Shown here: positions 39,762-63,068 of the stretch, one piece after another
Position numbering within the stretch: position 1 is the first letter of the stretch
Layout: each line of letters opens with the position of its first letter
Origin: an uncultured Chloroflexia bacterium
GTDB taxonomy: Bacteria > Chloroflexota > Dehalococcoidia > DSTF01 > JALHUB01
Assembly: GCA_963835655.1 (NCBI GenBank)
Contig: CAWIGJ010000003.1
Location: 1,011,380 to 1,075,379, forward strand
Reading direction: 5' to 3'
DNA: 64,000 bases
Translations under genes and position numbers: made by a program
The notes under the pieces: model-generated
Seen by the model: the letters and a program-made list of their open reading frames with translations, nothing else
Databases searched by the model: none
Told to the model about the DNA's origin: nothing

Positions 39762-40020
39762 TTTGAAACATCTCCTCCACTCCCCAGTCTGCTGTTCTCT
39801 CAGCGAATGCAAAAAGCCACCGGCGCGGCCGCCAGTGGCTGACGTGCTCCCCCTGAACCAGCTTTCGGCGGCCCGGCTGCCATGGTCGATTCAAGATCGA
39901 ACTTTAGGCCCGAAGCTTTGCGTCCCGTCCTTTCGAACGGTTTGCCGTTTGTCGAGCAGAACCCAACAACGGGTTCTACTCTTTCAATCGGATGATTGCG
40001 GGAAATCTGCTGCAGGTTGC

Positions 40021-49624: not shown

Positions 49625-49701
49625 GGGCCGCTAGCTCAATTTGGCAGAGCAGCTGACTCTTAATCAGCCGGTTCCAGGTTCGAGTCCTGGGCGGCCTACC
49701 A
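49625..49701 (+). tRNA. tRNA-Lys (anticodon CTT)
   Basis: Cloverleaf folds as GGGCCGC/GCGGCCT acceptor, GCTC/GAGC D-stem, GCTGA/TCAGC anticodon stem with loop CTCTTAA, and a CCAGG/CCTGG T-stem with a TTCGAGT loop. CCA is encoded. Confidence 0.9.
49655..49701 (+). repeat. attL core: the 3' 47 nt of tRNA-Lys, identical to 62920-62966
   Basis: Exact 47/47 match: gactcttaatcagccggttccaggttcgagtcctgggcggcctacca. Confidence 0.85.
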
Positions 49702-49714
49702 GAAAACGAATCTA

Positions 49715-49740
49715 GAAAGGCCCCCTTCGAGGGGCCTTTC
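49715..49740. terminator. Perfect hairpin GAAAGGCCCC cttcga GGGGCCTTTC, likely a bidirectional terminator between tRNA-Lys and the first element gene
   Basis: 10-bp perfect stem. T-rich flank on the minus strand (TTTCTAGATTCGTTTTCTGG). Confidence 0.45.
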
Positions 49741-49758
49741 TGCTTACCTTCCTTAGCA

Positions 49759-49778
49759 TTTGCTAACATTTTGCTAAC
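49759..49778 (+). repeat. Two direct copies of TTTGCTAAC (plus an overlapping TTAGCA/TGCTAA inverted repeat) just inside attL; candidate integrase arm sites
   Basis: ccTTAGCAtTTGCTAACatTTTGCTAACgc. The same 9-mer pair occurs at 62768-62789. Confidence 0.5.
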
Positions 49779-50169
49779 GCTCGTGTGGGCGGTAGTGTCC
49801 CACTAGAAACGCCAAGTGCGCGGTACTCATCAGGAAGGCGGTCGCCTTCGGTCCGACCGACGTTGAACCTGTGGCCTCCCTACGGTGCATAAAGAAGAGA
49901 AGATTGGTCGTTAGGAGAGCGAGGGCGGCTCTCTCTATATCCGTTTTGTGCGAAGCGTCCGCCGCGACGACACAAGCCGCTATATAGTCAAAGGCCTTGT
50001 CCGAATGAAGTTCAGGCTTAGAGACGTTCAGTTGTTTTGCTAACTGACGGAGGGTCTCAAGCACAATCTCATTTCCAGTATTTGGGTCTGTGTCAGCATC
50101 TTCCACTTGCTTGAGCCAAGCGACAGCCTCGGCTTCCCCCAATAGATCCATTTCGCTGTTCTCATCCAT
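49774..50169 (-). CDS. Hypothetical protein (131 aa), element cargo
   Basis: ORF only. No recognisable motif. Confidence 0.4.
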   Translation of the reverse strand: MDENSEMDLLGEAEAVAWLKQVEDADTDPNTGNEIVLETLRQLAKQLNVSKPELHSDKAFDYIAACVVAADASHKTDIERAALALLTTNLLFFMHRREATGSTSVGPKATAFLMSTAHLAFLVGHYRPHER

Positions 50170-50173
50170 CTTG

Positions 50174-51316
50174 TCACCTACTGAACACTAGCGCCGCCAC
50201 CCGCTCTGCGGCGTCCTCTTGCAAGCCGGGGATAACGGCGCTGTAGACGTCGAGGGTAAAGGCGACGCTGCTATGTCCGAGCCGTTCACTGACCACTTTC
50301 GGGTGAACGCCAGCGGCCAACGCAAGGCTGGCGTGACCGTGGCGCAAATCATGCAGCCTTATCGTGGGCAGGCCAGCCGACTTCACGAGGAGCTGGAAAT
50401 GGCCCGAGAAGGACTCGGGGTTTACGGGGCCGCCGTCCGGCGCCGTGAATACCAGCGCCTCGGCGTCGGGCGCCCCTAGTCCAAGAGTCATGCGATCTTC
50501 CAGCACCCGCTTGCGGTGAGCCCTGAGAACGGCGATCGTGGTCGTGTCTAGGCTGATCTTGCGGTTGCCCCGGCCTGTCTTCGGCTCGCTCGAAAGGATT
50601 TGCCCCTTCACGCTGATAAGCGTCTGATTGACGCTGAGGTGGCCAGCCTTGAGGTCTAGGTCACACCACCTTGCCCCCAGTGCTTCGCCGCGTCTCATGC
50701 CCGTGGTGGCGAGTAGGAACAGGGGCTGGTAGTAGTAGTCACCTTCTATATGTCGGAGGAATTGGCCCAGTTGGTCAGCGTTCCATGTCCGAAGGGTATG
50801 GTTACGCTGCTGCTTTGGTGGGCTTGCAGCAGCGGCCACGTTCCTAGTCACGTCACCCCATTTGAGGGCTTCGCCCAATGCGCGGTGCAACGTCGCGTGG
50901 CAATAGCGCACCGTTCGGGGCGATAAACCGCCCTTGCCCTGGCGCCGGCCGCTTTCCAGGAGTTCAGCGTAAAGGCTATTCAACTGGCCGGGGGTGAGTT
51001 TCTGCAACGGCGTGCTACCTATTCGCGGCTTGATATAGCTTTCGACTATCAGCCGGTAGCCCTCGAGCGTTGACGCGCGGACGCTGGCCCGCGCCTGATC
51101 CAGCCATCGCGTCAGGAACATGGCCAGCGTTTCCCGTGAGGGCTCTACAAGGTTGCCCGTGGCGTAGCGCTGAAGCGTCTCCGTTAGCCCGGCCTCGCAC
51201 TCTTTCCGCGTACGAAATCCGCCCTTAGTCCGCTGCCGACGCCGGCCCTTTTCGTCGCGGCCAACGTCGAGCGTATAGCTCCAGGTCCTGCCCCTCTTGC
51301 CGACGTGTCCTTTCAT
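50174..51316 (-). CDS. Tyrosine-type phage integrase
   Basis: Catalytic box R…HDLRH…LGHSSVAFTLDVY. Adjacent to attL and tRNA. Start probably the internal Met (MKGHVGKRG) next to the upstream gene stop. Confidence 0.85.
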   Translation of the reverse strand: MKGHVGKRGRTWSYTLDVGRDEKGRRRQRTKGGFRTRKECEAGLTETLQRYATGNLVEPSRETLAMFLTRWLDQARASVRASTLEGYRLIVESYIKPRIGSTPLQKLTPGQLNSLYAELLESGRRQGKGGLSPRTVRYCHATLHRALGEALKWGDVTRNVAAAASPPKQQRNHTLRTWNADQLGQFLRHIEGDYYYQPLFLLATTGMRRGEALGARWCDLDLKAGHLSVNQTLISVKGQILSSEPKTGRGNRKISLDTTTIAVLRAHRKRVLEDRMTLGLGAPDAEALVFTAPDGGPVNPESFSGHFQLLVKSAGLPTIRLHDLRHGHASLALAAGVHPKVVSERLGHSSVAFTLDVYSAVIPGLQEDAAERVAALVFSR

Positions 51317-52221
51317 GATTGCCCTCCTCTGTGTTCTCGCGCCCATGCGCGATCCCGACAGCGCTTGTCATGGTACTCTTGCAGCCCGTGGGCGACGCCG
51401 AAGAGACGCCCGCAACCTTTGCAGAGCTGCCATCGTTTACCGGCCGCTAGGTCTTCATAGAGTTGCAGCCACATGGCAGTTTCTAAGTCGCCACAGCTCG
51501 ATCCACCTTTGATTCTGCCACCATCAATGGAGAGCCCTAGCCGAACGCTCTCCAACCGTTCCCAGAACACCGACGCCAAGCGAACCTGCTTCTCCTCTAG
51601 GTCCGGATCGTCGTCGAACTCCTCTGCGTCTCGTACCTGCTTCACGAGCCGAACGGCCTCAGAGAACTCGATGGCTTGTATAAGCAAGCGCCAGAGAATG
51701 ATCCTGACTTTGCCGTCCGCGTCCTCCAGATCGGCGAAGATGGGGCGCGGCGGTGATTGCCGAGTGTAGATAATGCCGCCCGGTAGAGGTCGCGGAAGGA
51801 CTGGCCCCCAATTGACGACGAACGCTCGCGCCTCGCGCTGGATCGCCCCGTTGAACGAGGCGTATATGGCAAGGGTTTCCGCAGAATCTTCGCCGCTCGG
51901 TGCCGACCTTTGCCCTGCGTCCTGCGCATGCTTTCCTAGCGCGGCGAAGTCGCTGTAGGGCTGCGGCGTCAGTCTGAGCGGCTCATACCCCTCGCGGCTG
52001 AAGTCCACGAGCGCGCCGTCAAACTGTAACGCGACGGGGTCGCCGCCGACGCGCCAGTGCTGCCTGTTTCCCTTCGGCCACCAAAAGACCGTGAAAGTGT
52101 CGTCGCGTTTCTGCATTTCGGCCCCTATCTCGGCGGAAATCGGCTTGGCCTCGTCTATTATTGCACGGTACCATACCAGTGTCAAGCGATTAGAAGGGGA
52201 TAGGAGCAGAAAAAATGACAC
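51313..52221 (-). CDS. Hypothetical protein with a C-terminal CGNR-like zinc-finger (CxxC…F…C-R-x-R…HR)
   Basis: C-terminus RWQLCKGCGRLFGVAHGLQEYHDKRCRDRAWAREHR resembles the zf-CGNR signature. The N-terminal ~35 aa may be an over-extension. Confidence 0.4.
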   Translation of the reverse strand: MSFFLLLSPSNRLTLVWYRAIIDEAKPISAEIGAEMQKRDDTFTVFWWPKGNRQHWRVGGDPVALQFDGALVDFSREGYEPLRLTPQPYSDFAALGKHAQDAGQRSAPSGEDSAETLAIYASFNGAIQREARAFVVNWGPVLPRPLPGGIIYTRQSPPRPIFADLEDADGKVRIILWRLLIQAIEFSEAVRLVKQVRDAEEFDDDPDLEEKQVRLASVFWERLESVRLGLSIDGGRIKGGSSCGDLETAMWLQLYEDLAAGKRWQLCKGCGRLFGVAHGLQEYHDKRCRDRAWAREHRGGQS

Positions 52222-52439
52222 AGAAGAATGCGATGGCGGTAGACGTTCGCCGGCTGCCGCCGACGGTCACCGTTCCCGAAGCGGGTAGCTTGCTGGGAAT
52301 CAGTCGCGGGTCCGCTTACGAGGCCGCCCGTACGGGGCAAATCCCGGCCCTGAGAATCGGGGCGCGCCTCGTGGTGCCTACGGCGCAGTTGCTCCGGCTT
52401 CTAGAGGGTGTGCCCACCGAGCCGAAGCCGGGCGCCTGA
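52215..52439 (+). CDS. Excisionase/AlpA-family HTH DNA-binding protein
   Basis: VTVPEAGSLLGISRGSAYEAARTGQIPALRIGARLVVPTAQLLRLLEG matches the excisionase-family HTH pattern. Divergent from the integrase. Confidence 0.65.
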   Translation: MTQKNAMAVDVRRLPPTVTVPEAGSLLGISRGSAYEAARTGQIPALRIGARLVVPTAQLLRLLEGVPTEPKPGA

Positions 52440-52549
52440 GCCGACAAGGGCCGTGAGCACGTTGACTGAACTCCGTCCTGCGCGCGCTTTGTGCCCGCGC
52501 TGCCAATTTCGGTTCGAGCTTCTTTCGGAAGTCCGGGTAGAGGATAGCG

Positions 52550-53527
52550 TTGCCTGCCCCAAGTGCCATGTCGTGGTTTGCCCCGAACGGGAGCCGCTCG
52601 ACCAAAGTTGGTGGGCTTGGGCGAATAGCAGAGGGGCAGACCGTGAATCTTGACGACATTCTCCCGCTTCTCGATTCGCCCGCCGGCGATCCTTTCGGCG
52701 GGAAGCCGGTTGCGCCGGACCGTCACACGTGGTTTTTCTGCCCCGTTCATGCGGATGGCAGCAAGCACGGGCGCCGCTCGGCAACCTTTCACCCCCGCTA
52801 TGGCCTGACCTGTTTCGCCGGCTGCGAAAGGCGCGACATCATTGCCGCGCTCCAAAAGCGCGGCGGCGTTCATCCCGCCCATACACCGAGCGACAGCAGC
52901 CCCGCGCATCGCTCGAGGTCAAAAGCGATCCCTGGCCGGATCGTCGCCCGCTACCCGTACCCCGACGAAAGGGGCCAGTTGCTGTATGAGGCCCTACGCA
53001 AGGAGACGGCTGACGGCAAGACATTCCTTTTGCGGCGGCCTAACGGCATGGGCGGCTGGATTTGGAACATTGACGGCATGCGCCGTGTCCTCTATCGGCT
53101 TCCCGAACTCCTGGCGGCTGACCCTAGCGCCTTTGTTTTCATCTGTGAGGGCGAGAAGCGCGTTGATGCGCTTGCTCGGCTCGGCCTCACGGCGACAACA
53201 AACGTAGGCGGCGCCGGGAAGTGGAAACCCGCCTGTAACGACTATCTTCGCCGCCGGCGCGTCGTGATCCTTCCCGACAACGATCCGCCAGGAGCCGAAC
53301 ACGCTGAGCAAGTGGCGCGCTCACTTATGGGCGTCGCCGCTGAAGTCCGCGTGATCGTGCTGCCCGGCCTGCCTTTCAAGGGCGACATCATTAACTGGCT
53401 TGCTGCTGGCGGCAACCGCGAAATACTCCTAGCCCTGGCAGAGCGCCCGCCGACGGAGCGGCCATCTTCCGCCGACTTCCCGAAAGCCGTCCGGGTGAGC
53501 GTCCTTAACGCCGCAGGAGTTGCCTGA
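52550..53527 (+). CDS. Phage/plasmid primase (CHC2 zinc finger plus Toprim)
   Basis: CPVHADGSKHGRRSATFHPRYGLTCFAGC (CHC2). Toprim glutamate in ICEGEKRVDAL and DxD in ILPDNDPPG. Confidence 0.75.
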   Translation: MPAPSAMSWFAPNGSRSTKVGGLGRIAEGQTVNLDDILPLLDSPAGDPFGGKPVAPDRHTWFFCPVHADGSKHGRRSATFHPRYGLTCFAGCERRDIIAALQKRGGVHPAHTPSDSSPAHRSRSKAIPGRIVARYPYPDERGQLLYEALRKETADGKTFLLRRPNGMGGWIWNIDGMRRVLYRLPELLAADPSAFVFICEGEKRVDALARLGLTATTNVGGAGKWKPACNDYLRRRRVVILPDNDPPGAEHAEQVARSLMGVAAEVRVIVLPGLPFKGDIINWLAAGGNREILLALAERPPTERPSSADFPKAVRVSVLNAAGVA

Positions 53528-54750
53528 TGCCTCAGCCTAGCACGCGGGAGGAAGTTGCCATCGTCGCATTCGGTGACGGCTCGCACACCGACCGGGAGCA
53601 AGTTCTGGAAGTGGTAAGCCGCTGGCTGAGAATCGGCGACCTCGAGGCGGTCGACGTCATCATGGCAACCGCTATCGCAATCTACCTGCCGGGCGATCCC
53701 CTTTGGCTTCACGTTGTAGCTCCACCTGGAGGCACCAAGAGCGAGTTACTGCGGTCGCTACAGGGGCCAAGGGTCGTCAGCATTTCCACCATGACGCCGC
53801 AGACGCTCATCTCGGGCCTCAAGGGGCACGGTGAGGACATCGACCTGCTGCCTAAGCTCGATGGCAAACTGCTTATCATCAAGGACTTCACGTCCATTCT
53901 TTCAAAGAAGTCAGAGGACCAGGCGGCAATCTTCGCCGACTTGCGCGAAGCATATGACGGCTATCTTGAAAAGTCCTTCGGCTCCGGCGTCGGGATAAAG
54001 GGCTACAATGCCAGTTTCGGACTCATTGCGGGCGTCACGCCCGCGATAGACATGTTCCGGACTGTCCATTCCTTGCTCGGCGAGCGCTTCCTTCGGGTCA
54101 ATGTTGTTGGCGATGAACAGGGCGCCGTCACGCGCTCCAGTGAGCTTGAGGGCCAAGAGAAGACAATGCGCCAAGAGCTCGGCGCCGCTGTCGGCGGCTA
54201 TCTCACGCATGCCGGCGAATGGGTTGACCCCGACGTGCTGGTAGAAGAGCGTTTCCTTCAGCAGCTCCGGGCACTGGCACAGCTCACGGCTGCCCTGCGT
54301 TCCCCCGTCGCTCGCGACCGTCAGCACCACGTCCTCTATTCGCCTCAGCGTGAGATAGGTACGCGGCTCGTTAAGCAGCTTCAGAAACTTGGCAAGGCGC
54401 TCGCCAACTGGCGGGAACGCCTGATAGTCAGCGCTGAAGATTACGCTACCGTTCGTCGCGTCGCGCTTGACTGCATACCGAGCGGACGAATTGCCGCCCT
54501 GCGGCCGCTCCTAGAGGCGGATACGTGGCTATCGACAAAACAGGTAGGGCAAGCCGCTAACCAGCATACCGACACCGCAAACGAGCATCTTCATGACATG
54601 TGGATGCTCCATCTCCTACAACGCGAAGGTGACGCCGCCTATTCATGGGCAGTAGCGGATGAAACCCGCCAACTGCTAGGAAGGGCGGCTATCGACCTAC
54701 GGACGCAAAACACCCTGAGTAGGCTAGATGAGGCAATGGAATGCCCTTAA
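53527..54750 (+). CDS. Primase-associated P-loop NTPase / replicative helicase-like protein
   Basis: Walker-A-like VVAPPGGTKSE and Walker-B-like KLLIIKDF. Start overlaps the primase stop (ATGA), suggesting translational coupling. Confidence 0.45.
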   Translation: MPQPSTREEVAIVAFGDGSHTDREQVLEVVSRWLRIGDLEAVDVIMATAIAIYLPGDPLWLHVVAPPGGTKSELLRSLQGPRVVSISTMTPQTLISGLKGHGEDIDLLPKLDGKLLIIKDFTSILSKKSEDQAAIFADLREAYDGYLEKSFGSGVGIKGYNASFGLIAGVTPAIDMFRTVHSLLGERFLRVNVVGDEQGAVTRSSELEGQEKTMRQELGAAVGGYLTHAGEWVDPDVLVEERFLQQLRALAQLTAALRSPVARDRQHHVLYSPQREIGTRLVKQLQKLGKALANWRERLIVSAEDYATVRRVALDCIPSGRIAALRPLLEADTWLSTKQVGQAANQHTDTANEHLHDMWMLHLLQREGDAAYSWAVADETRQLLGRAAIDLRTQNTLSRLDEAMECP

Positions 54751-54811
54751 TTGTTAAGACTCAAGGACGCAAAACACCCTGTGCAAGCACGAGGACAAAT
54801 ATAATTTGTCC
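54701..54811 (+). promoter_or_regulatory. Origin-like region: two 17-bp direct repeats GGACGCAAAACACCCTG (54701-54717 and 54765-54781) followed by the AT-rich palindrome GGACAAATATAATTTGTCC (54793-54811)
   Basis: Read directly. Located at the 3' end of, and just after, the helicase-like gene. Confidence 0.5.
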
Positions 54812-55091
54812 TTTTAGAACGTCGGCGGCTACTGGGGGTACTTTGCGCCCCTGGCCTACTGCCTGCCAACAAGCGCGTGTGCTACCCGCTCCGGCCACAA
54901 AATCACGCGGCGACAGCCGCCCAAGCGGTAGGCTCAGTGGATGCGGCAGAACGAAGGCCCTGCCATGACTGCCACCAAAGAGGACTCGGCCCGTGAGCAA
55001 AGCGTTAGCAGGCAAGCGGGATCGAATCTGGAAAAGGCCCAGCAGCGGATTGGTAGTCAGCGGGATTACACACTAACGGAGTCTGACTAGG

Positions 55092-55631
55092 ATGGCCGTC
55101 AAAGCCGAAATAGAGCCCGCCACAGGCGCGCTAGAGCCGCGATCTATCTCGCCGGCGCAACGTCAGCAGCGCCAGCTCGCAGCCGTGAAGACGGGTCTGT
55201 ATGTAAAAGCCCCTGCTGGCCTCAGGCTCAGGTCGCGAAGAGTGCGCCGCTTGGTAAGCAAAATGCGCGCGGTCATGCCGTGGCTTGACGATAGCGACTT
55301 GCCAGCTTGTAGGGCGTGGGCAGAGTTCGAGATTCTAGGCGCTACTGCCTTCGCCGATCTCATTGAGCGCGGCATGACAAACGACAATGGCGATCCGCGC
55401 CGGTTGCTGGGCGAATTCAGGCAACTTCGGCAGGCGCAACTCGGCTATGAGCGCGGTCTAGGAATGACGCCAGCCGCCCGCATGTCCTTGCGGGTAGGCG
55501 ACAGCCGGGCGCGTTCGTTCGATAGGGGCGGCGTTGCCGCATCTGCTGAGGACGTGGCAGCGCTTGAAACGCGCGTCCTGGCGCGTCTAGGGCCGCAAGG
55601 AACGGCGGCAGAGGTGAACAGTGGAGACTAA
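55092..55631 (+). CDS. Terminase small subunit (P27-family-like)
   Basis: 179 aa. Overlaps the terL start by 11 nt. Sequence character fits the P27 small terminase family. Confidence 0.55.
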   Translation: MAVKAEIEPATGALEPRSISPAQRQQRQLAAVKTGLYVKAPAGLRLRSRRVRRLVSKMRAVMPWLDDSDLPACRAWAEFEILGATAFADLIERGMTNDNGDPRRLLGEFRQLRQAQLGYERGLGMTPAARMSLRVGDSRARSFDRGGVAASAEDVAALETRVLARLGPQGTAAEVNSGD

Positions 55632-57000
55632 CGACGCCCTGGCGCAATCGCCCTTGTTGTGGGCGCTGGAGCGGCTTCACCGCCTCAACGGACGGCCTTT
55701 CACGCTCTATGACTACCAGCTTCACGTCCTGGCAAACCGCTCGCCGCGTGTGCTGGTCCTGAAGTCGCGACAAGTCGGGCTATCGACAGCGGCGGCGATC
55801 AGGGCGGCTCACGAATTGCTGTTCAACGAACGGGCGATGGTGCTGGTAGTGAGCCGCGATCAGGACGCCGCCGGCCACTTCCTTGCGACCGTCCTTGACA
55901 TTCTCGACTCACTTGCTGAGCCGCCTGACTTCACGCGGCGCGGCGTCTTTGAGGCGCAACTAAAGAACGGATCACGCATCCTGTCGCAAGCGGCGACAGG
56001 CAAGGCAGGGCGCGGCGTTAGGGCGACACTCGTGGTCTGTGATGAATTCGCCTTTATGGATTATGACGCGGCGATCTTCCGCGCCGTCAGCCCGACGATA
56101 GCGCGCGGCGGGCGGCTAATCGTGATCAGCACGCCCAACGGTCAAAACAATCTCTTCTTCAGACTGTGGCACGGCAACGAAGGCGGCGATTGGTCAAGGC
56201 ATCGCGTCCACTGGAGCGACTGCCCGGCGTTTGATCCGGCATGGTTTGAGCGGGAACGTCCGAACTATACCGCCCGCGACTGGGCGCAAGAGTTCGATTT
56301 GGACTTCGTTGCGAGTGGCGGCGCTGCCTTCCGTCCTGAGGACGTTGACGCCATGGCCGATGGATGGCAGGGCTATCAGCCGCGCAAGGATGATGAGCGG
56401 TTTGCGATCTATGTCACGGGCGTTGACGTCGGCCGCAAGCATGACGCGACCGTGCTAATCACCCTGAGGACTGACAGGCGACCGTTCCAGATCGTCGCGT
56501 TCGAGCGGCTAGTGGGCTGTCCCTACGCTCAGCAGCAGGCCTTGATCGAGGCGCGGGCCGAAGCCTACGGCGGCAAGGTGATAGTCGAGAGCAACGGGAT
56601 CGGCGACCCGGTTCTCGAGGCGCTGCATTGCTACGCCGATCCCTTCGTAACGACTCAACAGAGCAAGGCGCACGGCCTGACGCGGCTCATTCAACTGGTA
56701 GAGCAGCGCCAGATCAAGGGCGACATTCCCGAGTTGCTGTCAGAACTTCGCTCCTACGAATGGGAGGATTCGCGGCTCAAAACAGACTGTGTAATGGCCC
56801 TGATGCTCGCTTGCACGGGCATCGTCGAGTATTACGTATCGTTCCAAGAGCTTCAGGACATGATGGACGAAGGCTCGCGCGGGCGGGGAACTATCGTCAC
56901 AAACTCTGACGGCACGCGCTGGTTGAATTCGAGTTGCGTTGAGGACGACGCCCGAGCGGATGAAGCGGGCGCGTTCCATAGCATCCCGACAGTCTTTTGA
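55621..57000 (+). CDS. Terminase large subunit (ATPase plus RNaseH-like nuclease)
   Basis: Walker A region VLKSRQVGLST, Walker B LVVCDEFAF, and the nuclease Asp cluster YVTGVDVGRKHDATVL. Confidence 0.75.
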   Translation: METNDALAQSPLLWALERLHRLNGRPFTLYDYQLHVLANRSPRVLVLKSRQVGLSTAAAIRAAHELLFNERAMVLVVSRDQDAAGHFLATVLDILDSLAEPPDFTRRGVFEAQLKNGSRILSQAATGKAGRGVRATLVVCDEFAFMDYDAAIFRAVSPTIARGGRLIVISTPNGQNNLFFRLWHGNEGGDWSRHRVHWSDCPAFDPAWFERERPNYTARDWAQEFDLDFVASGGAAFRPEDVDAMADGWQGYQPRKDDERFAIYVTGVDVGRKHDATVLITLRTDRRPFQIVAFERLVGCPYAQQQALIEARAEAYGGKVIVESNGIGDPVLEALHCYADPFVTTQQSKAHGLTRLIQLVEQRQIKGDIPELLSELRSYEWEDSRLKTDCVMALMLACTGIVEYYVSFQELQDMMDEGSRGRGTIVTNSDGTRWLNSSCVEDDARADEAGAFHSIPTVF

Positions 57001-57028
57001 CACTGCCGGGGTAGGAAAGGAAACGGAA

Positions 57029-57391
57029 ATGGCGACAGGAACCTCAAACGAGAAAGTCAGGGAGCACCTGAAGACGCTGAGTGAACAGATGCGCCTTCGC
57101 TACAACGTGCTGGAGGACCGGCGCGCGGCTGAAGAGGCGGGCAACTCAGTGATTCCGCCAGGGCTGCCAGGAGAAACATTCGGCTTCAAGACGACAACGC
57201 GAATCGACGCGCCGGCCATCATGAAAGTTGACCCGAAGGCTAACGCTGCCATGAAGCAGCGGCTCCAGAACGTGTTGGGCGTTGCGAAGCTGCTTGGTGT
57301 TCCCGAAGACAAGGCGCGAGAACAGTTCGAGCGGGAACAGGCAGGCCAGCGGCCGCTCGATAACACCGTGCCGGGATTCAAGGGAGTGTAA
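57029..57391 (+). CDS. Hypothetical phage protein (120 aa)
   Basis: RBS GGAAAGGAAACGG. ATG at 57029 follows terL. Confidence 0.45.
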   Translation: MATGTSNEKVREHLKTLSEQMRLRYNVLEDRRAAEEAGNSVIPPGLPGETFGFKTTTRIDAPAIMKVDPKANAAMKQRLQNVLGVAKLLGVPEDKAREQFEREQAGQRPLDNTVPGFKGV

Positions 57392-57394
57392 ACC

Positions 57395-57715
57395 ATGCAA
57401 ACGGGAGACGTACACCGCGTCGATTTTGCCAACGTTCGGCGCTACGCCGACAGCGAACTCGACCGCTGCTGGAGTTGCCGCAACTTGGCGCGCTGTTCTG
57501 GCGATTGTCACTCGCACGCCGAGCCGCCCGTCGCTGTAAAGGTTAACGGCTCAGCGGATGCGCGGGCGAGACAGCAACTCGATGAAGTCCTGACGGTCGG
57601 CAAGGGCGCCGGTCTTAGTGAAGCACAAGTCCTCGAGCAAAGGCTGAGGCAGCTTCAGGGCAAGCCGCCGGTTCCCGATGGAACTTTCGGCTTCAACGGG
57701 GGTCACGCCCAATGA
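57395..57715 (+). CDS. Hypothetical Cys-rich protein (CWSC…C…C…H)
   Basis: ORF in the structural/packaging module. Possible zinc-binding. Confidence 0.4.
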   Translation: MQTGDVHRVDFANVRRYADSELDRCWSCRNLARCSGDCHSHAEPPVAVKVNGSADARARQQLDEVLTVGKGAGLSEAQVLEQRLRQLQGKPPVPDGTFGFNGGHAQ

Positions 57716-57930
57716 CCCCGCTCATCGAGGAATTGGCGGCGCGCGTCGAAAACGGCCAAATCCGCCTATCGCGACTGCCGCCGGGCGAAACGCGCGATCA
57801 AGTGGCGGCGCGACTGGAGAAGGATCGCGGCGACTTGCAGCGCTGGCTCGACGTAGAAGAGCTTGAAAGAAACAGCCGGGCGAACAGCGCTGAGCCCCTG
57901 CCGTGGGACTTGCGACGGAAGGAACTGTGA
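57712..57930 (+). CDS. Hypothetical protein (72 aa)
   Basis: Overlaps the preceding gene by 4 nt. Confidence 0.35.
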   Translation: MTPLIEELAARVENGQIRLSRLPPGETRDQVAARLEKDRGDLQRWLDVEELERNSRANSAEPLPWDLRRKEL

Positions 57931-58140
57931 ATCGCGTTAGGTGCGTGAAGTGAACGAAGTGAATTTCGGCTCGGACAGGTGTGGCTTCACCTCCTTGTTG
58001 TCTGCCTGTCCGGTCGGCGTGTCGGGCCGGGGTGTGTGACGCGCGACTTCCATCGCGTTGCCATAACGAGCTTGACCTCCTTGAGCTCCCCGGTCCGGAG
58101 CGCTTCAAGTCAGGGTGACGCAATTTGAAAGGATAGCCCA

Positions 58141-59748
58141 ATGGCAGACGATTCAACCCTGAGTATCCTAATTCAGGCTGAGGACCAAGCCTCGAGCGCC
58201 CTTCAAAGCGTCGGCGGCTCCCTTGACGACCTTCAATCAAAGGCGCAAGGCGTCACTGACGCCGCAGGCGACACGGCGGGTGCCATGTCTGACGTTGGGG
58301 ACACGGCGGCAGATGCCGGTTCAAGCCTTGAGGATGCGGGCGGGGCTGCGGCTGACACCGGGACAAACCTTGAGGATGCGGGTAGTTCTGCCGACAGTGC
58401 GGGGATGAGCATCGGCGACCTGACCTCACAGGTTGGTGATCTGGCGGGCGGTCTAAGCGGCCTCACGCCCGAAATGGGAACGTTAACCGCTGGATTAGGC
58501 GGGCTATCTGGGGCAGTGGCCGGACCAGCGGGTATAGCAGCGGCTATTGGCGCTGGAGCGGCGGCCTTCATCGGGCTAGGCGAAGCGGGCGGTCAGTGGG
58601 CAACTGAGGTGATGACCGTTAAAGACATCACCAATATGAGCACGACTGACGTAACGAAGTGGGGCCTTGCGCTGGAAGACGTGGGCGGCGACATGAATCA
58701 GCTCGCTACGATCTCCTACATGCTGGAGCGCCGATTGCAAACGCAAGTAGATGCCGAGAACGCAGGGCAGACGGGTAGTTTGGCGTTGGCGAAAGCGATG
58801 GAGGACACCGGAACGGCCTACAAGGATGCCGAAGGGAACATGCTCGACATGGGTACTATCCTGCCCAATCTGCTAACGAATCTGACAGCCATGACGGATA
58901 AAACGCTGGCCGCTAATGATGCCACGGTAATTCTCGGACGCGGCGGGCGTGAAATGCTAGTGGTACTTCAAGAATGGCCTGATCTGGCGGCCGCCGTCAA
59001 CCGGCAGACTGCCGAGTTGGATACCACGACTGAAGAAGGGGCGAAACACGCCATCGAGTACAACATCGCCATGACGGACATGAAAGACGAGCTGATCATG
59101 CTCGATCAGGACGTTTTACCCGCGTTTACCACATTCCTAGAGGCCCTACCCGTCGGCTTCCATATGGCTGGCGACGCCATGCACCTTCTGTTTAGAGAGA
59201 TCGTGGACGGAGCGCCGTTTTTGCGCTCGATGGTCGATACAGTCTCGGCCGGAGCTGACATACTACACGGCGACTTCAAGGGCGCCGTAGACGACGGAAA
59301 GAACGCCCTGCGAGATATGATTCCCGGCTATAACATGGCGCAGGACGCTATTGCCGGCGTCAACGATGAAACCAAGGATTTGTCTAGTTCGCTCGACGCC
59401 CAATCTGAAAGCCTGAAATCCTCGACTCAGCAATGGGCCGACTACAACTCAGAGATTGAAGCGGCTCTCAGCATGGGCATGACGCTGGAAGAGGCCGTGA
59501 CCAGCGTAAGTCATCCCGGTGTAGACATCACCGGCCAAGAGGTGAACGTTCCTACCTATGACTACGGCGGCTTTGTGCCCGGGGCGCCGGGTGCGCCGCA
59601 ACTTGCAGTTGTGCATGGCGGCGAGACGGTGACGCCAGCGGGCCAACAGCAGTTCGGCACCTTCCAGAACTTCGGTAATATCAACGTCTACCCCCAGAGC
59701 GGCGGCATGGCCGACATGATGGCAGAAATAGCGAAGCAGGTGAGCTAA
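58141..59748 (+). CDS. Tape-measure-like / tail structural protein (Gly/Ala/Asp-rich repeats)
   Basis: N-terminal degenerate repeats DxGxxxxDxG followed by Gly-rich hydrophobic segments, then a helical region. Position is after the terminase genes. Confidence 0.35.
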   Translation: MADDSTLSILIQAEDQASSALQSVGGSLDDLQSKAQGVTDAAGDTAGAMSDVGDTAADAGSSLEDAGGAAADTGTNLEDAGSSADSAGMSIGDLTSQVGDLAGGLSGLTPEMGTLTAGLGGLSGAVAGPAGIAAAIGAGAAAFIGLGEAGGQWATEVMTVKDITNMSTTDVTKWGLALEDVGGDMNQLATISYMLERRLQTQVDAENAGQTGSLALAKAMEDTGTAYKDAEGNMLDMGTILPNLLTNLTAMTDKTLAANDATVILGRGGREMLVVLQEWPDLAAAVNRQTAELDTTTEEGAKHAIEYNIAMTDMKDELIMLDQDVLPAFTTFLEALPVGFHMAGDAMHLLFREIVDGAPFLRSMVDTVSAGADILHGDFKGAVDDGKNALRDMIPGYNMAQDAIAGVNDETKDLSSSLDAQSESLKSSTQQWADYNSEIEAALSMGMTLEEAVTSVSHPGVDITGQEVNVPTYDYGGFVPGAPGAPQLAVVHGGETVTPAGQQQFGTFQNFGNINVYPQSGGMADMMAEIAKQVS

Positions 59749-59757
59749 CACGGGGCA

Positions 59758-59985
59758 ATGTCTATGGCCTTAGTGCGCTGTGGCCGCCCGTACTGTGGCG
59801 GCGCAATCTTGCCCGGCGAGTCCGCCTGTCTCCTTTGCGGCCGCTGCCCCCGCAAACTTGAGCCTATCCGCCTTCCCGTTCGGCGCCGCGAAAAGACGTT
59901 CTCAGTGCTGGCGGCGATAATGGTAGAGGTCCCAGGTGCCTTCCGTTCGCTGAGGGCGGCTGTACCCGAGGGGGTAGACTTCTAG
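59758..59985 (+). CDS. Small zinc-ribbon protein (CxxC…CxxC)
   Basis: CGRPYCGG…CLLCGRC. Confidence 0.35.
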   Translation: MSMALVRCGRPYCGGAILPGESACLLCGRCPRKLEPIRLPVRRREKTFSVLAAIMVEVPGAFRSLRAAVPEGVDF

Positions 59986-60098
59986 TAGCACGTCGCGCCC
60001 GGGCGCTCTAGGTACTGACCGACCGCCTTCTTTCCGACCCCCAAAGCTAGGAACCGCTCGTTTTGCCGCCAGGATCGAAATCTGGGCGTTTCCCGCGC

Positions 60099-60128
60099 TT
60101 GACAGGCGCTAGACACCGGCGTACTATC
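60099..60128 (+). promoter_or_regulatory. Near-consensus sigma70 promoter (TTGACA, 18 nt, TACTAT) upstream of the second recombinase
   Basis: cgcTTGACAggcgctagacaccggcgTACTATcc. Confidence 0.4.
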
Positions 60129-60252
60129 CGCCGTGAAAGACGACGGCGCCCGCTTGGGCGGACGCCGCCTGAGCCAAAGCCTGCTGTTACCAGGCCCGGC
60201 CCGCGCAAAGGATACCATGTCGGACCCCTGATCGCAGCAGCGAAGGGGGTTT

Positions 60253-61143
60253 TTGATGATCACGGTAAAGGATGCAGTGAGCCGCTACATTCAAAGCCTC
60301 TGCGCCAGCGGCTACTCCGAGTTCACTACGATCAGCGCGACCTCTATTCTAGGGCAGTTCGCAACCTACGCCGATGGTGCAGCCTTAGCCGATGTCGGTG
60401 ATCGGGCCATCGCTTGGCTGGCTCTTCGCCGCCGACAGGTTCGGCGTAACACGCTGTGTGCCAACTCCTCACACGTTAAGCAATTCCTCAAGTTCTGCAA
60501 GGACAACGGCTGGATCGAGTCCAATCCCGTTGCCGACATGAAGCGACCATGTGCAGAACAGGTAGTCACACAACCGCTGAGTGATAGGGAAATCCTCGCG
60601 CTATGCGAGGCGGCAACGGGTTGGCAGCGGACGGCTATCGTTTTACTGCTAGGAACCGGGATGCGGATCGGCGAGCTCGCCGCCCTGCGCTGGCAGGACA
60701 TTTACGATCAATACGTGGTAGTGCATGGGAAGGGTTCAAAGCAGCGCACGCTCGCTCCGGGCAGGCGAGCTATGGAGATGCTGCGCGAGTTGCCACAGGC
60801 CGGCGATAAGGTATTCCCCTGTACCTATGGCGGCATAAAGACGGTTCTGCGGCGCCTCTCCGTTCGCAGCGGTATCTACTTCCATCCGCATCAGTTCCGG
60901 CATACGTTTTCCCATCGCTTCCTCGAGGCTGGCGGCTCATTTGAAGAGCTGTCAGAGATTCTGGGCCATGCCAACCTGAACACAACGGCTGTCTATGTCC
61001 GGGCATTCCGGCGGGATCGAGCGTTAGCGGCGCAACGCCGCTGGAATCCGGCTGATGCGCTCTTTGGAATTCCCGACGATGGTGACGACGGCGCCAGCAA
61101 CGTTGTCGCGTTTCATCCGAGAGTCGCAGTCGGGGCGCGATAG
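60253..61143 (+). CDS. Second tyrosine recombinase (XerC/D-like)
   Basis: R…HQFRHTFSHRF…LGHANLNTTAVYV catalytic box. Confidence 0.8.
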   Translation: MMITVKDAVSRYIQSLCASGYSEFTTISATSILGQFATYADGAALADVGDRAIAWLALRRRQVRRNTLCANSSHVKQFLKFCKDNGWIESNPVADMKRPCAEQVVTQPLSDREILALCEAATGWQRTAIVLLLGTGMRIGELAALRWQDIYDQYVVVHGKGSKQRTLAPGRRAMEMLRELPQAGDKVFPCTYGGIKTVLRRLSVRSGIYFHPHQFRHTFSHRFLEAGGSFEELSEILGHANLNTTAVYVRAFRRDRALAAQRRWNPADALFGIPDDGDDGASNVVAFHPRVAVGAR

Positions 61144-61480
61144 AGGGCGTTGACCCGCTCGACGTACCGTTGTCACTGAGTAGATAATCGCGACGTTAGG
61201 CCGGGGGTTTGTGTTGTGCGGCAACCCGCGACAGTCGTAAACGGGTCTATGAGAATGGCACCGGGTCCCACCTTAAGTCCCGTGGCTGGGGCAACGCAAG
61301 GATGCGATCACATTTCCAGGAGGCAGTCTGTCAAGAGATTGGGAGCGATTCTATGCGCACGGCCTACCCCCGGCCGACGCATTCCAATGATCGAAAGGAG
61401 ACAGTTGTGGAATCTGAAGATGTTTACGAGACTTTAGCAGCCCTCAAGAAAACAGCAGGCTGATAGGGGCGAGCAGGGGT

Positions 61481-61837
61481 CTACTGCAGCTTCCCGTCCT
61501 TGTCGCTTACCGTGTAGGTGTCTGACTCGACGATGTTCTGGCCCGCTTGGTCTGGGGCGAAATCGCAGGTGACTACCCACATGTCGGCGTCGGGCCTATA
61601 AGAGGCGCTGACGCATCTTACAAAGTTAGCTCCCGCCGGAGCGGGCATATTGCTCACCTGCTGTTGAGCCAGCCGCTCAATGTCTTGTGCAGTGAACCTG
61701 GCCTTGGGCGCGGCGGTGGGCGCGGGCGTGGGAATTGTTTGCGTCGATTGCCACGGACCGGTCACATACAGGATCGCACCGGCCGCGATACCAGCGCCGA
61801 CCAGCAGTGCGACTACGGGGATTATCCACTGCTTCAT
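61481..61837 (-). CDS. Membrane-anchored or secreted hypothetical protein (118 aa), element cargo
   Basis: N-terminal signal anchor, Pro/Thr linker, and a Cys-containing C-terminal domain. Confidence 0.4.
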   Translation of the reverse strand: MKQWIIPVVALLVGAGIAAGAILYVTGPWQSTQTIPTPAPTAAPKARFTAQDIERLAQQQVSNMPAPAGANFVRCVSASYRPDADMWVVTCDFAPDQAGQNIVESDTYTVSDKDGKLQ

Positions 61838-62008
61838 GGTACGTCTCCTAACAGGAGTCTGACGAGGATAGGCGCATTCTACACCCGTGAGTCAACGTAT
61901 CGCGTGCGCGTCGTTCTGCAACCCGATTTGCAACAAGAATCTTGACGCTCGTGGTATCCTTTCACTATCTCAGGACCTCCGCCAATCCCATCAACAGGGA
62001 CACAACAT

Positions 62009-62662
62009 ATGCCCTGGCCATTCCGACGAAGGCTACCAGATAGCGATTTCGCAAACGTCATTAACTTGATCCGTCATCTCCAGACCCAGGGAGCACTCCA
62101 GGATTTTACCGGCGAGCTTTCAATCACGGCCATGGCCATCGCGGACGGCGCTGGTCTACAGGAAGATGGAGTCTTCGCCCGTGGGAGGGCATACGTAACT
62201 GATCCTCACCGCGCCGCCACTCATCTTCTTCCCGCATTCGAAAAGACGGTTACGATGGCCGAGTCCATGGCCAGCGAACACAACTCATATCCGGCCCCAC
62301 AAACACCCAAGAAAGCGCTTGAGGCCTACAATTCCTGGACGGATTTCCTAACCTTATTTGTCACCAGAGCAAGACTAGAACTTGCCTGTTATACGGAATG
62401 GGTCGAGAATCCCTCTCTTGATGTCAGTCAGCGTTCCGCCGCGCTCAACCAGGCCACAGACGGCTCATTAGCCCTCGCCGTGACCCGTCTCAAGGACCTC
62501 GTCCGCTATGCGGGAATCAGCACAGACGCTTGGTGGTCTCTCAACTGTGCCGCGTTCAACGACGCCCGAAGCCGGGTCGATCTACCTCCCTTGACCGAGA
62601 CCGACTTCCGCGCCAGGTACCTCTCCATGGTCGCTGGAAGCCGACCTCGATTCTTCGAATGA
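62009..62662 (+). CDS. Hypothetical protein (217 aa), element cargo near attR
   Basis: ORF only. Confidence 0.4.
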   Translation: MPWPFRRRLPDSDFANVINLIRHLQTQGALQDFTGELSITAMAIADGAGLQEDGVFARGRAYVTDPHRAATHLLPAFEKTVTMAESMASEHNSYPAPQTPKKALEAYNSWTDFLTLFVTRARLELACYTEWVENPSLDVSQRSAALNQATDGSLALAVTRLKDLVRYAGISTDAWWSLNCAAFNDARSRVDLPPLTETDFRARYLSMVAGSRPRFFE

Positions 62663-62767
62663 CATTGCCAAGACAACGAGACATACCATGACCGCCTTGA
62701 CCGGCGACAGTACGCATGCGCCGGGCATGACCTTGCAGACAGCGAATAACTGGGGCGTTTTGCTAAC

Positions 62768-62789
62768 GGATTTGCTAACAAACCGTTTG
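62768..62789 (+). repeat. Two direct copies of TTTGCTAAC inside attR, in the same orientation as those at attL
   Basis: cgTTTTGCTAACggaTTTGCTAACaaacc. Confidence 0.5.
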
Positions 62790-62919
62790 TAATTGGCCGT
62801 CAGCGGTCATCATGGCGGGGTAGTCATGGGTCTAGCATCGGGCCGGGCGCAGATACGAATTGGCGCTAGAATTGGCACTAACCCGCAACGTTTAGTATGC
62901 TTTATCATGGCTGGCCTAG

Positions 62920-62966
62920 GACTCTTAATCAGCCGGTTCCAGGTTCGAGTCCTGGGCGGCCTACCA
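62920..62966 (+). repeat. attR: 47-bp duplicate of the tRNA-Lys 3' end (no tRNA 5' half present)
   Basis: Exact match to 49655-49701. The upstream sequence lacks an acceptor or D-arm. Confidence 0.85.
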
Positions 62967-62983
62967 GTGAAGGATCGCTGGCC

Positions 62984-63068
62984 GGGGAAGTGTCGGAACT
63001 GGCAGACGAGCATGACTTAGGATCATGTGCCGCAAGGCGTAGGGGTTCGAGTCCCCTCTTCCCCACCA
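62984..63068 (+). tRNA. tRNA-Leu (anticodon TAG)
   Basis: Acceptor GGGGAAG/CTTCCCC, anticodon stem CATGA/TCATG with loop CTTAGGA, long variable arm TGCCGCAAGGCGT, T-arm AGGGG-TTCGAGT-CCCCT, CCA encoded. Confidence 0.85.

Follow-up and report, generated by a model that had tools for sequence, protein, structure and literature searches.

A 13.2-kb element in a Chloroflexota tRNA-Lys gene carries both terminase subunits without detectable capsid genes and resembles a phage satellite

Introduction

What kind of mobile element carries both subunits of a phage terminase and no detectable capsid gene? The question is raised by a segment of 13,217 bp (13.2 kb) in a 64-kb window from an uncultured Chloroflexota bacterium (contig CAWIGJ010000003.1); the window is the whole stretch of 64,000 nucleotides that was analysed. 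The segment lies between two direct repeats at a tRNA-Lys gene. A preliminary description of the window had taken it for an integrative element and left its origin open between a phage and a satellite.

Phage-inducible chromosomal islands (PICIs), which are satellites defined by int, a regulator, pri-rep and terS, typically lack the large terminase subunit, TerL (PMC10085698). In satellites with a TerL of their own, capsid and portal genes are present as well (PMC10085698; PMC10690885). Our best explanation of the segment, drawn from its gene content and regarded by us as moderately probable, is a PICI-like phage satellite with a whole terminase and without capsid genes. On the choice left open earlier, a prophage is less well supported than a satellite-like element from a recurrent family.

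Results

An insertion in the tRNA-Lys gene

The integration target is a tRNA-Lys(CTT) gene at 49625–49701 on the + strand (ARAGORN; Rfam tRNA, 64.6 bits), whose 3' part lies inside the left attachment site, attL. A repeat finder and direct reading of the sequence placed attL at 49655–49702 and the right attachment site, attR, at 62920–62967, both on the + strand. The two sites are exact copies of a direct repeat that runs from the anticodon stem to one base, a G, past the tRNA-Lys 3' end. The preliminary description had given a perfect repeat of 47 bp; its exactness stands, and its length is corrected to 48 bp, that is 47 tRNA nucleotides plus the one G. Extension of the match stopped after 48 identical bases on one side and after 0 on the other, and the bases flanking both copies differ. 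As also described earlier, attR has no tRNA 5' half. The tRNA-Leu(TAG) gene that originally adjoined tRNA-Lys begins 17 nt beyond position 62966 (62984–63068, + strand; ARAGORN and Rfam), also in line with the earlier description. The att repeat contributes the sole 25-mers present twice in the 64-kb window, and a 28-nt core pattern, searched with up to 3 mismatches, matched at the two att sites only, with 0 matches expected from 100 shuffles. A chance origin of the repeat is excluded because of these two results.

PheT and PheS form the left flank of the element, and an OppD/DppD-type ABC ATPase that runs off the window end lies on the right. A PheS protein search, with one genome per species, placed the Dehalococcoidia-like host in Chloroflexota through metagenome-assembled genomes labelled Dehalococcoidia or Chloroflexia, and led to four Chloroflexota relatives (L002, L003, L004 and L050) with an empty tRNA-Lys(CTT)–tRNA-Leu(TAG) site. 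PheS of these relatives is 77–88% identical to that of the window. The gap between their two tRNA genes is 17–34 nt and is followed by OppD (84–94% identical), and no element gene lies between the tRNAs in any of the four. When the left flank and core of the window were joined to its right flank, the result aligned end to end with the relatives' loci; the spacer GTGAAGGATCGCTGG of the rejoined flanks was also present in three of the four. An exact pattern of tRNA-Lys 3' end, spacer and tRNA-Leu gave 0 matches among genome contigs, the relatives differing by single bases in both tRNAs. Insertion into tRNA-Lys is established, because four relatives have an unoccupied site with conserved pheS and oppD flanks, and the model passes the test that the preliminary description had set for it. 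The ancestral order pheS–tRNA-Lys–tRNA-Leu–oppD, which had been proposed from the window, is the order seen in them.

The element's copy of the tRNA-Lys 3' part restores the tRNA gene. One variable-loop base (49669 and 62934) is C in both att copies and G or A in the four relatives; attP, the attachment site of the element, therefore matched this host's own allele exactly. Such a match fits a donor of the same lineage. The G+C (GC) content of the element is 0.602 and that of the host 0.621, close to each other as stated before. The attP junction pattern was absent from IMG/VR.

On the other side of tRNA-Lys, the interval to pheS is 165–185 nt in the window and in L002, and 2–5.6 kb in the other three relatives (L050:1899-7529; L003:3751-6022; L004:7994-10001). 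There may be another insertion on the opposite side of the same tRNA in L050, because its stretch contains two Xer-like recombinase genes.

A terminase without detectable head genes

Between the repeats the preliminary description had called an integrase beside attL, an Xis-type helix-turn-helix (HTH) protein, a primase with a helicase-like partner, terS and terL, a tape-measure-like gene and a second tyrosine recombinase. Pfam recovered the integrase, the second recombinase and the HTH protein, which belongs to HTH_17. The primase and helicase-like pair was borne out, the helicase proving MCM-like by fold, and of the terminase calls that of TerL is strong and that of TerS is weak as a single sequence and supported across its family. 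The tape-measure-like gene kept weak matches only.

The large subunit, TerL, is encoded at 55621–57000 (+ strand) and is apparently intact (Terminase_6N, 1e-12; Terminase_6C, 0.002; phrog_2, 1e-39). It is 32–33% identical to TerL of Meiothermus and Thermus phages. Conserved ATPase motifs comprise a Walker A-like KSRQVGLS, a Walker B DEF and STPNG; conserved nuclease motifs comprise DVGRKHD, VESNGIGDP and DCVMAL. The phage homologues share this form of the Walker A-like motif, which we read as a deviant Walker A whose lysine is N-terminal. Four sister elements have longer TerLs, 598–637 aa, with a C-terminal extension of ~150–190 aa that neither the window TerL nor the phage TerLs have. Two types of extension occur, one in L163:4539-6335 and L166:5421-7223 and the other in L162:8173-10056 and L252:5383-7296.

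The small subunit, TerS, precedes TerL at 55092–55631 (+ strand), its end overlapping the TerL start, and is P27/Terminase_4-like by family-level Pfam matches. Searched alone it gave weak matches to Terminase_6 (0.0076) and Terminase_4 (0.021); among seven members of its family, six match PF05119 (Terminase_4), the best at 6e-8. It is 68% identical to the homologue in the sister element L252. A possible open reading frame (ORF) of 41 codons (MTATKEDSAREQ..., 54965–55090, + strand), below the threshold of the ORF list, ends just before the TerS start.

Hidden Markov model searches of Pfam, PHROGs and NCBIfam found no portal, capsid, protease, tail-tube or lysis gene in the element, and tblastn with the portal, MuF, protease and capsid proteins of related phages gave no match in it. 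The ORFs after TerL that lack an assignment encode proteins of 72–120 aa or a 535-aa all-helical orphan. As judged from its sequence, the element is not a complete temperate tailed prophage: its att sites enclose only 13.2 kb, where the genome of such a prophage usually exceeds 30 kb, and no portal, capsid, tail or lysis gene was detected in it.

A family of small elements around this TerL

About 30 TerL relatives at 51–74% identity were found, all on short contigs. Six of them were inspected (L162, L163, L166, L251, L252 and L253; TerL 53–74% identical), and all have a small architecture with no portal or capsid gene. The arrangement that recurs with this TerL clade is int–HTH–primase/helicase–TerS–TerL. 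In L166 the order is int, a 250-aa gene, HTH_17, a 66-aa gene, primase/AAA_25, TerS, TerL and five small genes; in L252 it is int, a 212-aa gene, HTH_17, primase/AAA_25, TerS, TerL and HicAB. L253 has a Xer-like int, HTH_17, AEP, DUF3987, TerS, HNH and TerL, and L251 has HTH_17, further on D5_N/DUF5906, then Terminase_4 and TerL. In L163, HTH_36, TerS and TerL are followed by genes without assignment. L162 lies beside a tRNA cluster and reads Xer-like int, Prim-Pol/D5_N, TerS and, further on, TerL, then a prohead-protease-like gene. L166 is complete. Perfect 62-bp repeats in tRNA-Leu(CAA) enclose its 10,046 bp; here too the att identity block extends from the anticodon region as far as the 3' end of the tRNA, and the L166 integrase shares 51% identity with the window integrase.

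The prohead-protease-like gene of L162 (L162:10458-11141, 227 aa) stands two genes after TerL. It is 29% identical (E = 7e-9) to the N-terminal part of an L169 protein that sits between portal and capsid. The 227-aa gene probably encodes a prohead protease, in which case L162 would have a head-maturation gene without a capsid gene.

More distant TerLs belong to phages. At 40–47% identity (L167, L168 and L169) they lie on phage contigs of 30–66 kb, with a portal immediately downstream in all three contexts examined. Many IMG/VR relatives at or below 47% have portal or MuF homologues downstream; the alignment-based scan of IMG/VR reached 47% identity, and all its matches were phage-like. Single-protein TerL scans of IMG/VR and metagenome contigs returned only relatives at or below 30%, the peptides chosen not being conserved. 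In a neighbour-joining TerL tree with midpoint root, the window TerL and all six small-element TerLs stand apart from the phage TerLs.

These comparisons bear on the first alternative, a defective prophage: a tRNA-Lys siphovirus that lost its portal-to-tail-tube block and lysis genes, leaving int, the replication genes, TerS/TerL, a short tape-measure remnant and debris. Packaging genes followed by a tape-measure-like gene are siphovirus synteny, the 535-aa orphan has weak tape-measure matches as a decaying gene might, the right part of the element has lower GC and an extra recombinase, and the TerL relatives at 40–47% identity sit in real phages. Decay is nonetheless hard to reconcile with perfect att repeats, with ORFs that are all intact and tightly packed, and with the conservation of every TerL motif. 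Six independent, diverged relatives share the small head-less architecture, one of them complete in 10.0 kb. The small-element TerLs form their own clade, which independent decay would not give; the lineage diversified inside small elements with its motifs kept, and this is therefore not the pattern of independently decaying prophages. We consider a defective prophage, with the leftovers listed, unlikely.

Replication genes and a sister element with a restriction-modification system

The primase is of the DnaG type (52550–53527, + strand), with a CHC2-like zinc motif and a Toprim domain (phrog_239, 9e-22; phrog_6088, 3e-21). It matches NCBIfam PRK07078 at 1e-29, below that model's cut-off. The next gene (53527–54750, + strand) encodes a 407-aa protein with no family match in Pfam, PHROG or NCBIfam. 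Its AlphaFold2 model, built from a 45-sequence alignment, had a mean predicted local distance difference test score (pLDDT) of 89 and includes a C-terminal winged helix. The top PDB matches of the model in Foldseek were MCM2-7 and archaeal MCM (SsoMCM), with E ~1e-9 and probability 1.0, and Lys71 and Asp120 are invariant or nearly so in the alignment. A profile of the family run against PDB sequences gave only spurious pentatricopeptide-repeat and weak winged-helix matches, and it was the fold search that gave the identity. The model points to an MCM-like AAA+ helicase, a membership limited to the level of the fold. The protein's family counts 5558 representatives, and fusions to Prim-Pol, Toprim or AEP primases are frequent among them. 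Primase and MCM-like helicase together are a replication module.

The closest relative of this module is in another element, L334, with a primase 74% and a helicase 86% identical to those of the window. A non-coding stretch after the helicase gene, at 54694–54856, contains a 64-bp local duplication and a perfect hairpin, GGACAAATATAATTTGTCC. The duplication copies the 3' end of the helicase gene and has no counterpart in L334. The part at 54765–54856 is 90% identical to L334, versus 78% in the coding part, and the homology to L334 ends there (~54856). The stretch could serve as an origin or a terminator, or as a signal at the module junction, and would mark the right end of the replication module. 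A 38-nt repeat after the helicase gene was considered as a set of iterons and rejected, since the comparison with L334 shows the 64-bp local duplication; the DNA fold of the repeat region is no more stable than that of shuffled sequence.

Where the window element has its terminase, L334:1-13132 (and L335) has a complete Type I restriction-modification (R-M) system (HsdM, HsdS and HsdR), and L334 also carries ORF6N and DSPc-like genes with it. This substitution suggests a second alternative, in which the element is an integrative, self-replicating island of the tycheposon type with a variable slot after the replication module, and the terminase pair is cargo that might, for example, sabotage the packaging of invading phages as a defence. 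L334 shares HTH_17, primase and helicase with the window and has its R-M system where the terminase module begins, and in tycheposons one backbone likewise occurs in cargo-carrying and in PICI-like forms (10.1101/2020.12.28.424599). Yet TerS and TerL are conserved together across the family with all catalytic motifs, and an intact motor with its recognition subunit is most simply explained by packaging. PADLOC defence models gave 0 matches for the ten element proteins scanned, those whose function is unknown or uncertain. The idea also overlaps the satellite explanation, since satellites interfere with their helpers by the same means. As a separate account, we find the cargo island distinctly improbable.

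Integration and regulatory genes

Genes for integration occupy the left end of the element in a leftward operon. The tyrosine integrase (50174–51346, − strand) matches Pfam Phage_integrase (4.8e-17), Phage_int_SAM_3 and Arm-DNA-bind_4, as well as phrog_1 (7e-70). The residues R...HxxR...Y are present in its translation, and the gene lies ~470 bp from attL. The Met codon at 51316 is its likely true start and forms ATGA with the overlapping stop of the upstream gene. Integrases of two sister elements, L166 and L252, share 49–51% identity with the protein. The operon closes with a gene for a 131-aa protein (49774–50169, − strand; ORF list). Between this gene and attL, a terminator scan by consensus match found a hairpin at 49714–49741, with a 12-bp stem and T-runs on both strands, that is likely a bidirectional terminator for tRNA-Lys and the integrase operon.

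Upstream of the integrase and in the same orientation is a gene whose product has up to 302 aa and a Cys-rich motif at its C terminus (51313–52221, − strand; ORF list). The probable start codon is Met36 (position 52116). Upstream of the leftward operon, at 52185–52157 on the − strand, stands a strong promoter-like site that scored 11 of 12 matches. The 302-aa gene occupies the slot where satellites keep their master repressor, and the same slot in sister elements holds unrelated genes of 203–250 aa. Neither the 302-aa nor the 131-aa protein had a match in Pfam, PHROG, NCBIfam or PADLOC. No Stl/Rpr-type repressor or capsid-size redirection gene was recognisable in the element.

The HTH_17 protein (52215–52439, + strand; Pfam HTH_17, 2.3e-9; phrog_66, excisionase/regulator) is an excisionase or AlpA-type regulator. 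Its gene is the first of the rightward operon and is divergent from the integrase operon. The protein is 51–55% identical to the HTH_17 proteins of L166, L252 and L334, that of L334 at 55%.

Genes right of the terminase

Three small genes of 120, 106 and 72 aa follow TerL in tight packing (57029–57930, + strand). The same calls were made independently on an identical 3.7-kb contig, L001, a fragment of the element found in ERR10755942. None of the three proteins had a Pfam, PHROG, NCBIfam or PADLOC match, and the idea that the 120-aa and 106-aa genes are paralogues was dropped after BLASTP showed no similarity.

The 535-aa orphan (58141–59748, + strand) is predicted to be all-helical and is weakly tape-measure-like. 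It matched Pfam TMP_3 at 0.0014 (18.8 bits, the cut-off being 41) and PHROG tape-measure families at 6e-5 and 5e-4. Among 5.8 billion proteins only two weak, partial homologues were found, one of them a PF10145 protein, and there was no match in cultured phages. A single-sequence AlphaFold2 model, all helices, had a pLDDT of 42 and was too poor for a fold search. No tail genes lie near the 535-aa gene.

Directly to the right is a 75-aa Cys-rich protein (59758–59985, + strand), possibly a zinc ribbon. It is 38% identical to the last gene of L162. A closer homologue, 50% identical, stands in L337:3973-13958 (and L336). This element of 9,940 bp lies in tRNA-Val(TAC) and is bounded by 46-bp repeats of 93% identity. 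L337 has a Xer-like integrase, an MCM-like helicase 77% identical to that of the window, a weak TerS-like gene, a gene for a collagen-like tail fibre and a weakly tape-measure-like gene of 538 aa; the 75-aa homologue comes directly after the latter. The pair of a ~535-aa tape-measure-like gene and a zinc-ribbon-like gene therefore recurs. Neither L337 nor L336 holds a TerL or capsid gene. The fibre gene, 471 aa, is whole in L337 only, and the gene calls of L336 differ. Taken with L334, the comparisons indicate that modules are exchanged among these elements.

The second tyrosine recombinase, XerC/D-like, lies at 60253–61143 (+ strand; Pfam Phage_integrase, 2.7e-27; phrog_1, 3e-45) and is 26–29% identical to the Xer-like element integrases of L253, L162 and L337. 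It is followed by a 118-aa cargo protein (61481–61837, − strand), which from the N-terminal hydrophobic segment in its translation is probably membrane-bound or secreted, and a 217-aa protein (62009–62662, + strand). Neither of the last two had a meaningful Pfam, PHROG, NCBIfam or PADLOC match. The right 5 kb of the element has a lower GC content, 0.587. The genes of the element stand close together, start and stop codons overlap, and both recombinases keep their catalytic residues.

The make-up of this right part suggests a third alternative, a composite of a ~10-kb satellite running from int to the zinc-ribbon gene (~49.7–60.0 kb) and the stump of an element led by a Xer integrase (60.0–62.9 kb). 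The two would once have stood in tandem at the same tRNA and the internal att site would have been lost, a history compatible with the satellite explanation. A Xer-like recombinase is the left-end integrase of L253, L162 and L337, L337 and L162 have their homologue of the 75-aa gene at the right end or close to it, and GC content drops in the right part. Against this, pattern searches found no third or degenerate copy of the att core inside the element, and only ~1.8 kb follow the second recombinase, with no replication or packaging genes. Both the composite structure and the tandem origin proposed for it seem to us rather improbable.

In the host region of the window, a c-di-GMP-I-GGC riboswitch aptamer was found at 39863–39956 on the − strand (Rfam RF03167, 63.7 bits; gathering score 59), upstream of an ORF on the same strand.

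Discussion

A probable satellite with its own packaging motor

The genes fall into modules for lysogeny (int, the co-transcribed protein and the divergent HTH_17), self-replication (primase and helicase) and packaging (TerS and TerL). Outside these modules are the three small genes, the weakly tape-measure-like orphan, the zinc-ribbon-like gene, the second recombinase and three cargo genes. The order of int, HTH_17, then primase and helicase is the conserved PICI order and speaks for a satellite, and tight packing and intact recombinase catalytic residues speak for a working element. We infer excision, helper dependence and packaging in the following form. Infection by a helper phage, or its induction, would trigger excision by Int and HTH_17. 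For replication the element would use an origin, a primase and an MCM-like helicase of its own. Its TerS and TerL would recognise and cut element concatemers and pump them into helper procapsids, and the filled procapsids would receive helper tails.

Several observations weigh against such a satellite. Neither a helper phage nor an excised circle, an attP junction or a packaged form was observed, and a close relative of the TerL is absent from IMG/VR. The order TerS–TerL–small genes–tape-measure-like gene is also expected of a siphovirus after loss of head and tail-tube genes. L334, the closest relative of the replication module, has its Type I R-M system at the terminase position, and the slot can therefore hold plain cargo. 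The right 5 kb, by its GC content and second recombinase, hints at a mosaic origin. Finally, the statement that capsid and portal are lacking rests on sequence searches; at least seven ORFs have no assignable function, and two structures were predicted.

The terminase-bearing satellite remains our preferred explanation. More tentatively, and with less confidence, we propose that it belongs to an undescribed class of Chloroflexota satellites. Such elements would bring both terminase subunits, in some cases also tail-related genes of the tape-measure-like or tail-fibre type, and no capsid or portal gene. They would capture the procapsids of a helper by exchanging its whole packaging motor and not just the recognition subunit; the same backbone would also occur with defence cargo.

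Comparison with known systems

Insertion into a tRNA gene is itself textbook biology, and the gene content is the new part. In the literature consulted, P4, PICIs, PLEs and PICMIs borrow the TerL of their helper, and cfPICIs and the pair MulchRoom/MiniFlayer carry TerL with their own capsid and portal. Full-text literature searches, of incomplete coverage, found no satellite family described with TerS and TerL and without head genes, and none in Chloroflexota. If our explanation is true, TerS and TerL without head genes would be a third satellite strategy and would raise the question of how a foreign TerL docks on the portal of the helper. For Chloroflexota, in which very few phages have been characterised, it would also be a first candidate for a satellite family.

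Temperate siphovirus prophages in tRNA genes share with the element a tyrosine integrase, an att block from the anticodon region to the tRNA 3' end and phage-type TerS and TerL. At 13.2 kb, however, the element is far too small for one, and it lacks their portal, capsid, tail and lysis genes. The resemblance to PICIs such as the SaPIs is closer: they have a size of ~10–15 kb, an integrase at one end beside att, a leftward int operon divergent from a rightward operon of HTH/AlpA, primase-replicase and terS, and their own replication module and TerS with no capsid, tail or lysis genes (PMC10085698). The element differs from them in its full TerL, its tape-measure-like gene, its second recombinase and its host phylum, Chloroflexota. 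It also differs in having no recognisable Stl/Rpr-type or size-redirection gene.

The cfPICIs and the Streptomyces satellites MulchRoom and MiniFlayer likewise have TerS and TerL of phage origin (PMC10085698; PMC10690885), and the cfPICIs also share the integrase/AlpA/primase backbone. Unlike the element, in which none of these was detected, they also have genes for a major capsid protein, for a portal, for a protease or scaffold and for head-tail adaptors. The EPIPs, satellites of Mycolicibacterium described in a preprint (PMC12822802), resemble the element in satellite size, TerS and a tape-measure gene, the last being a weak assignment in the window. A tape-measure gene is almost unknown in satellites according to the same preprint (PMC12822802). 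EPIPs differ by their serine integrase, head-tail adaptors, scaffold and capsid-related genes, and TerL is not listed among their conserved genes.

Prochlorococcus tycheposons match the element in their tyrosine recombinase, in tRNA insertion that leaves a partial tRNA repeat, and in the combination of a small integration module with a primase/helicase replication module. Their PICI-like forms, in another host phylum, carry terS or a capsid gene and not TerL; VEIMEs, like them, have at most terS or a capsid gene. The likeness extends to the use of one backbone with either cargo or packaging genes, as in L334 with its Type I R-M system and the window element with its terminase. Together with its sister elements, the element would represent tycheposon-like module swapping outside cyanobacteria.

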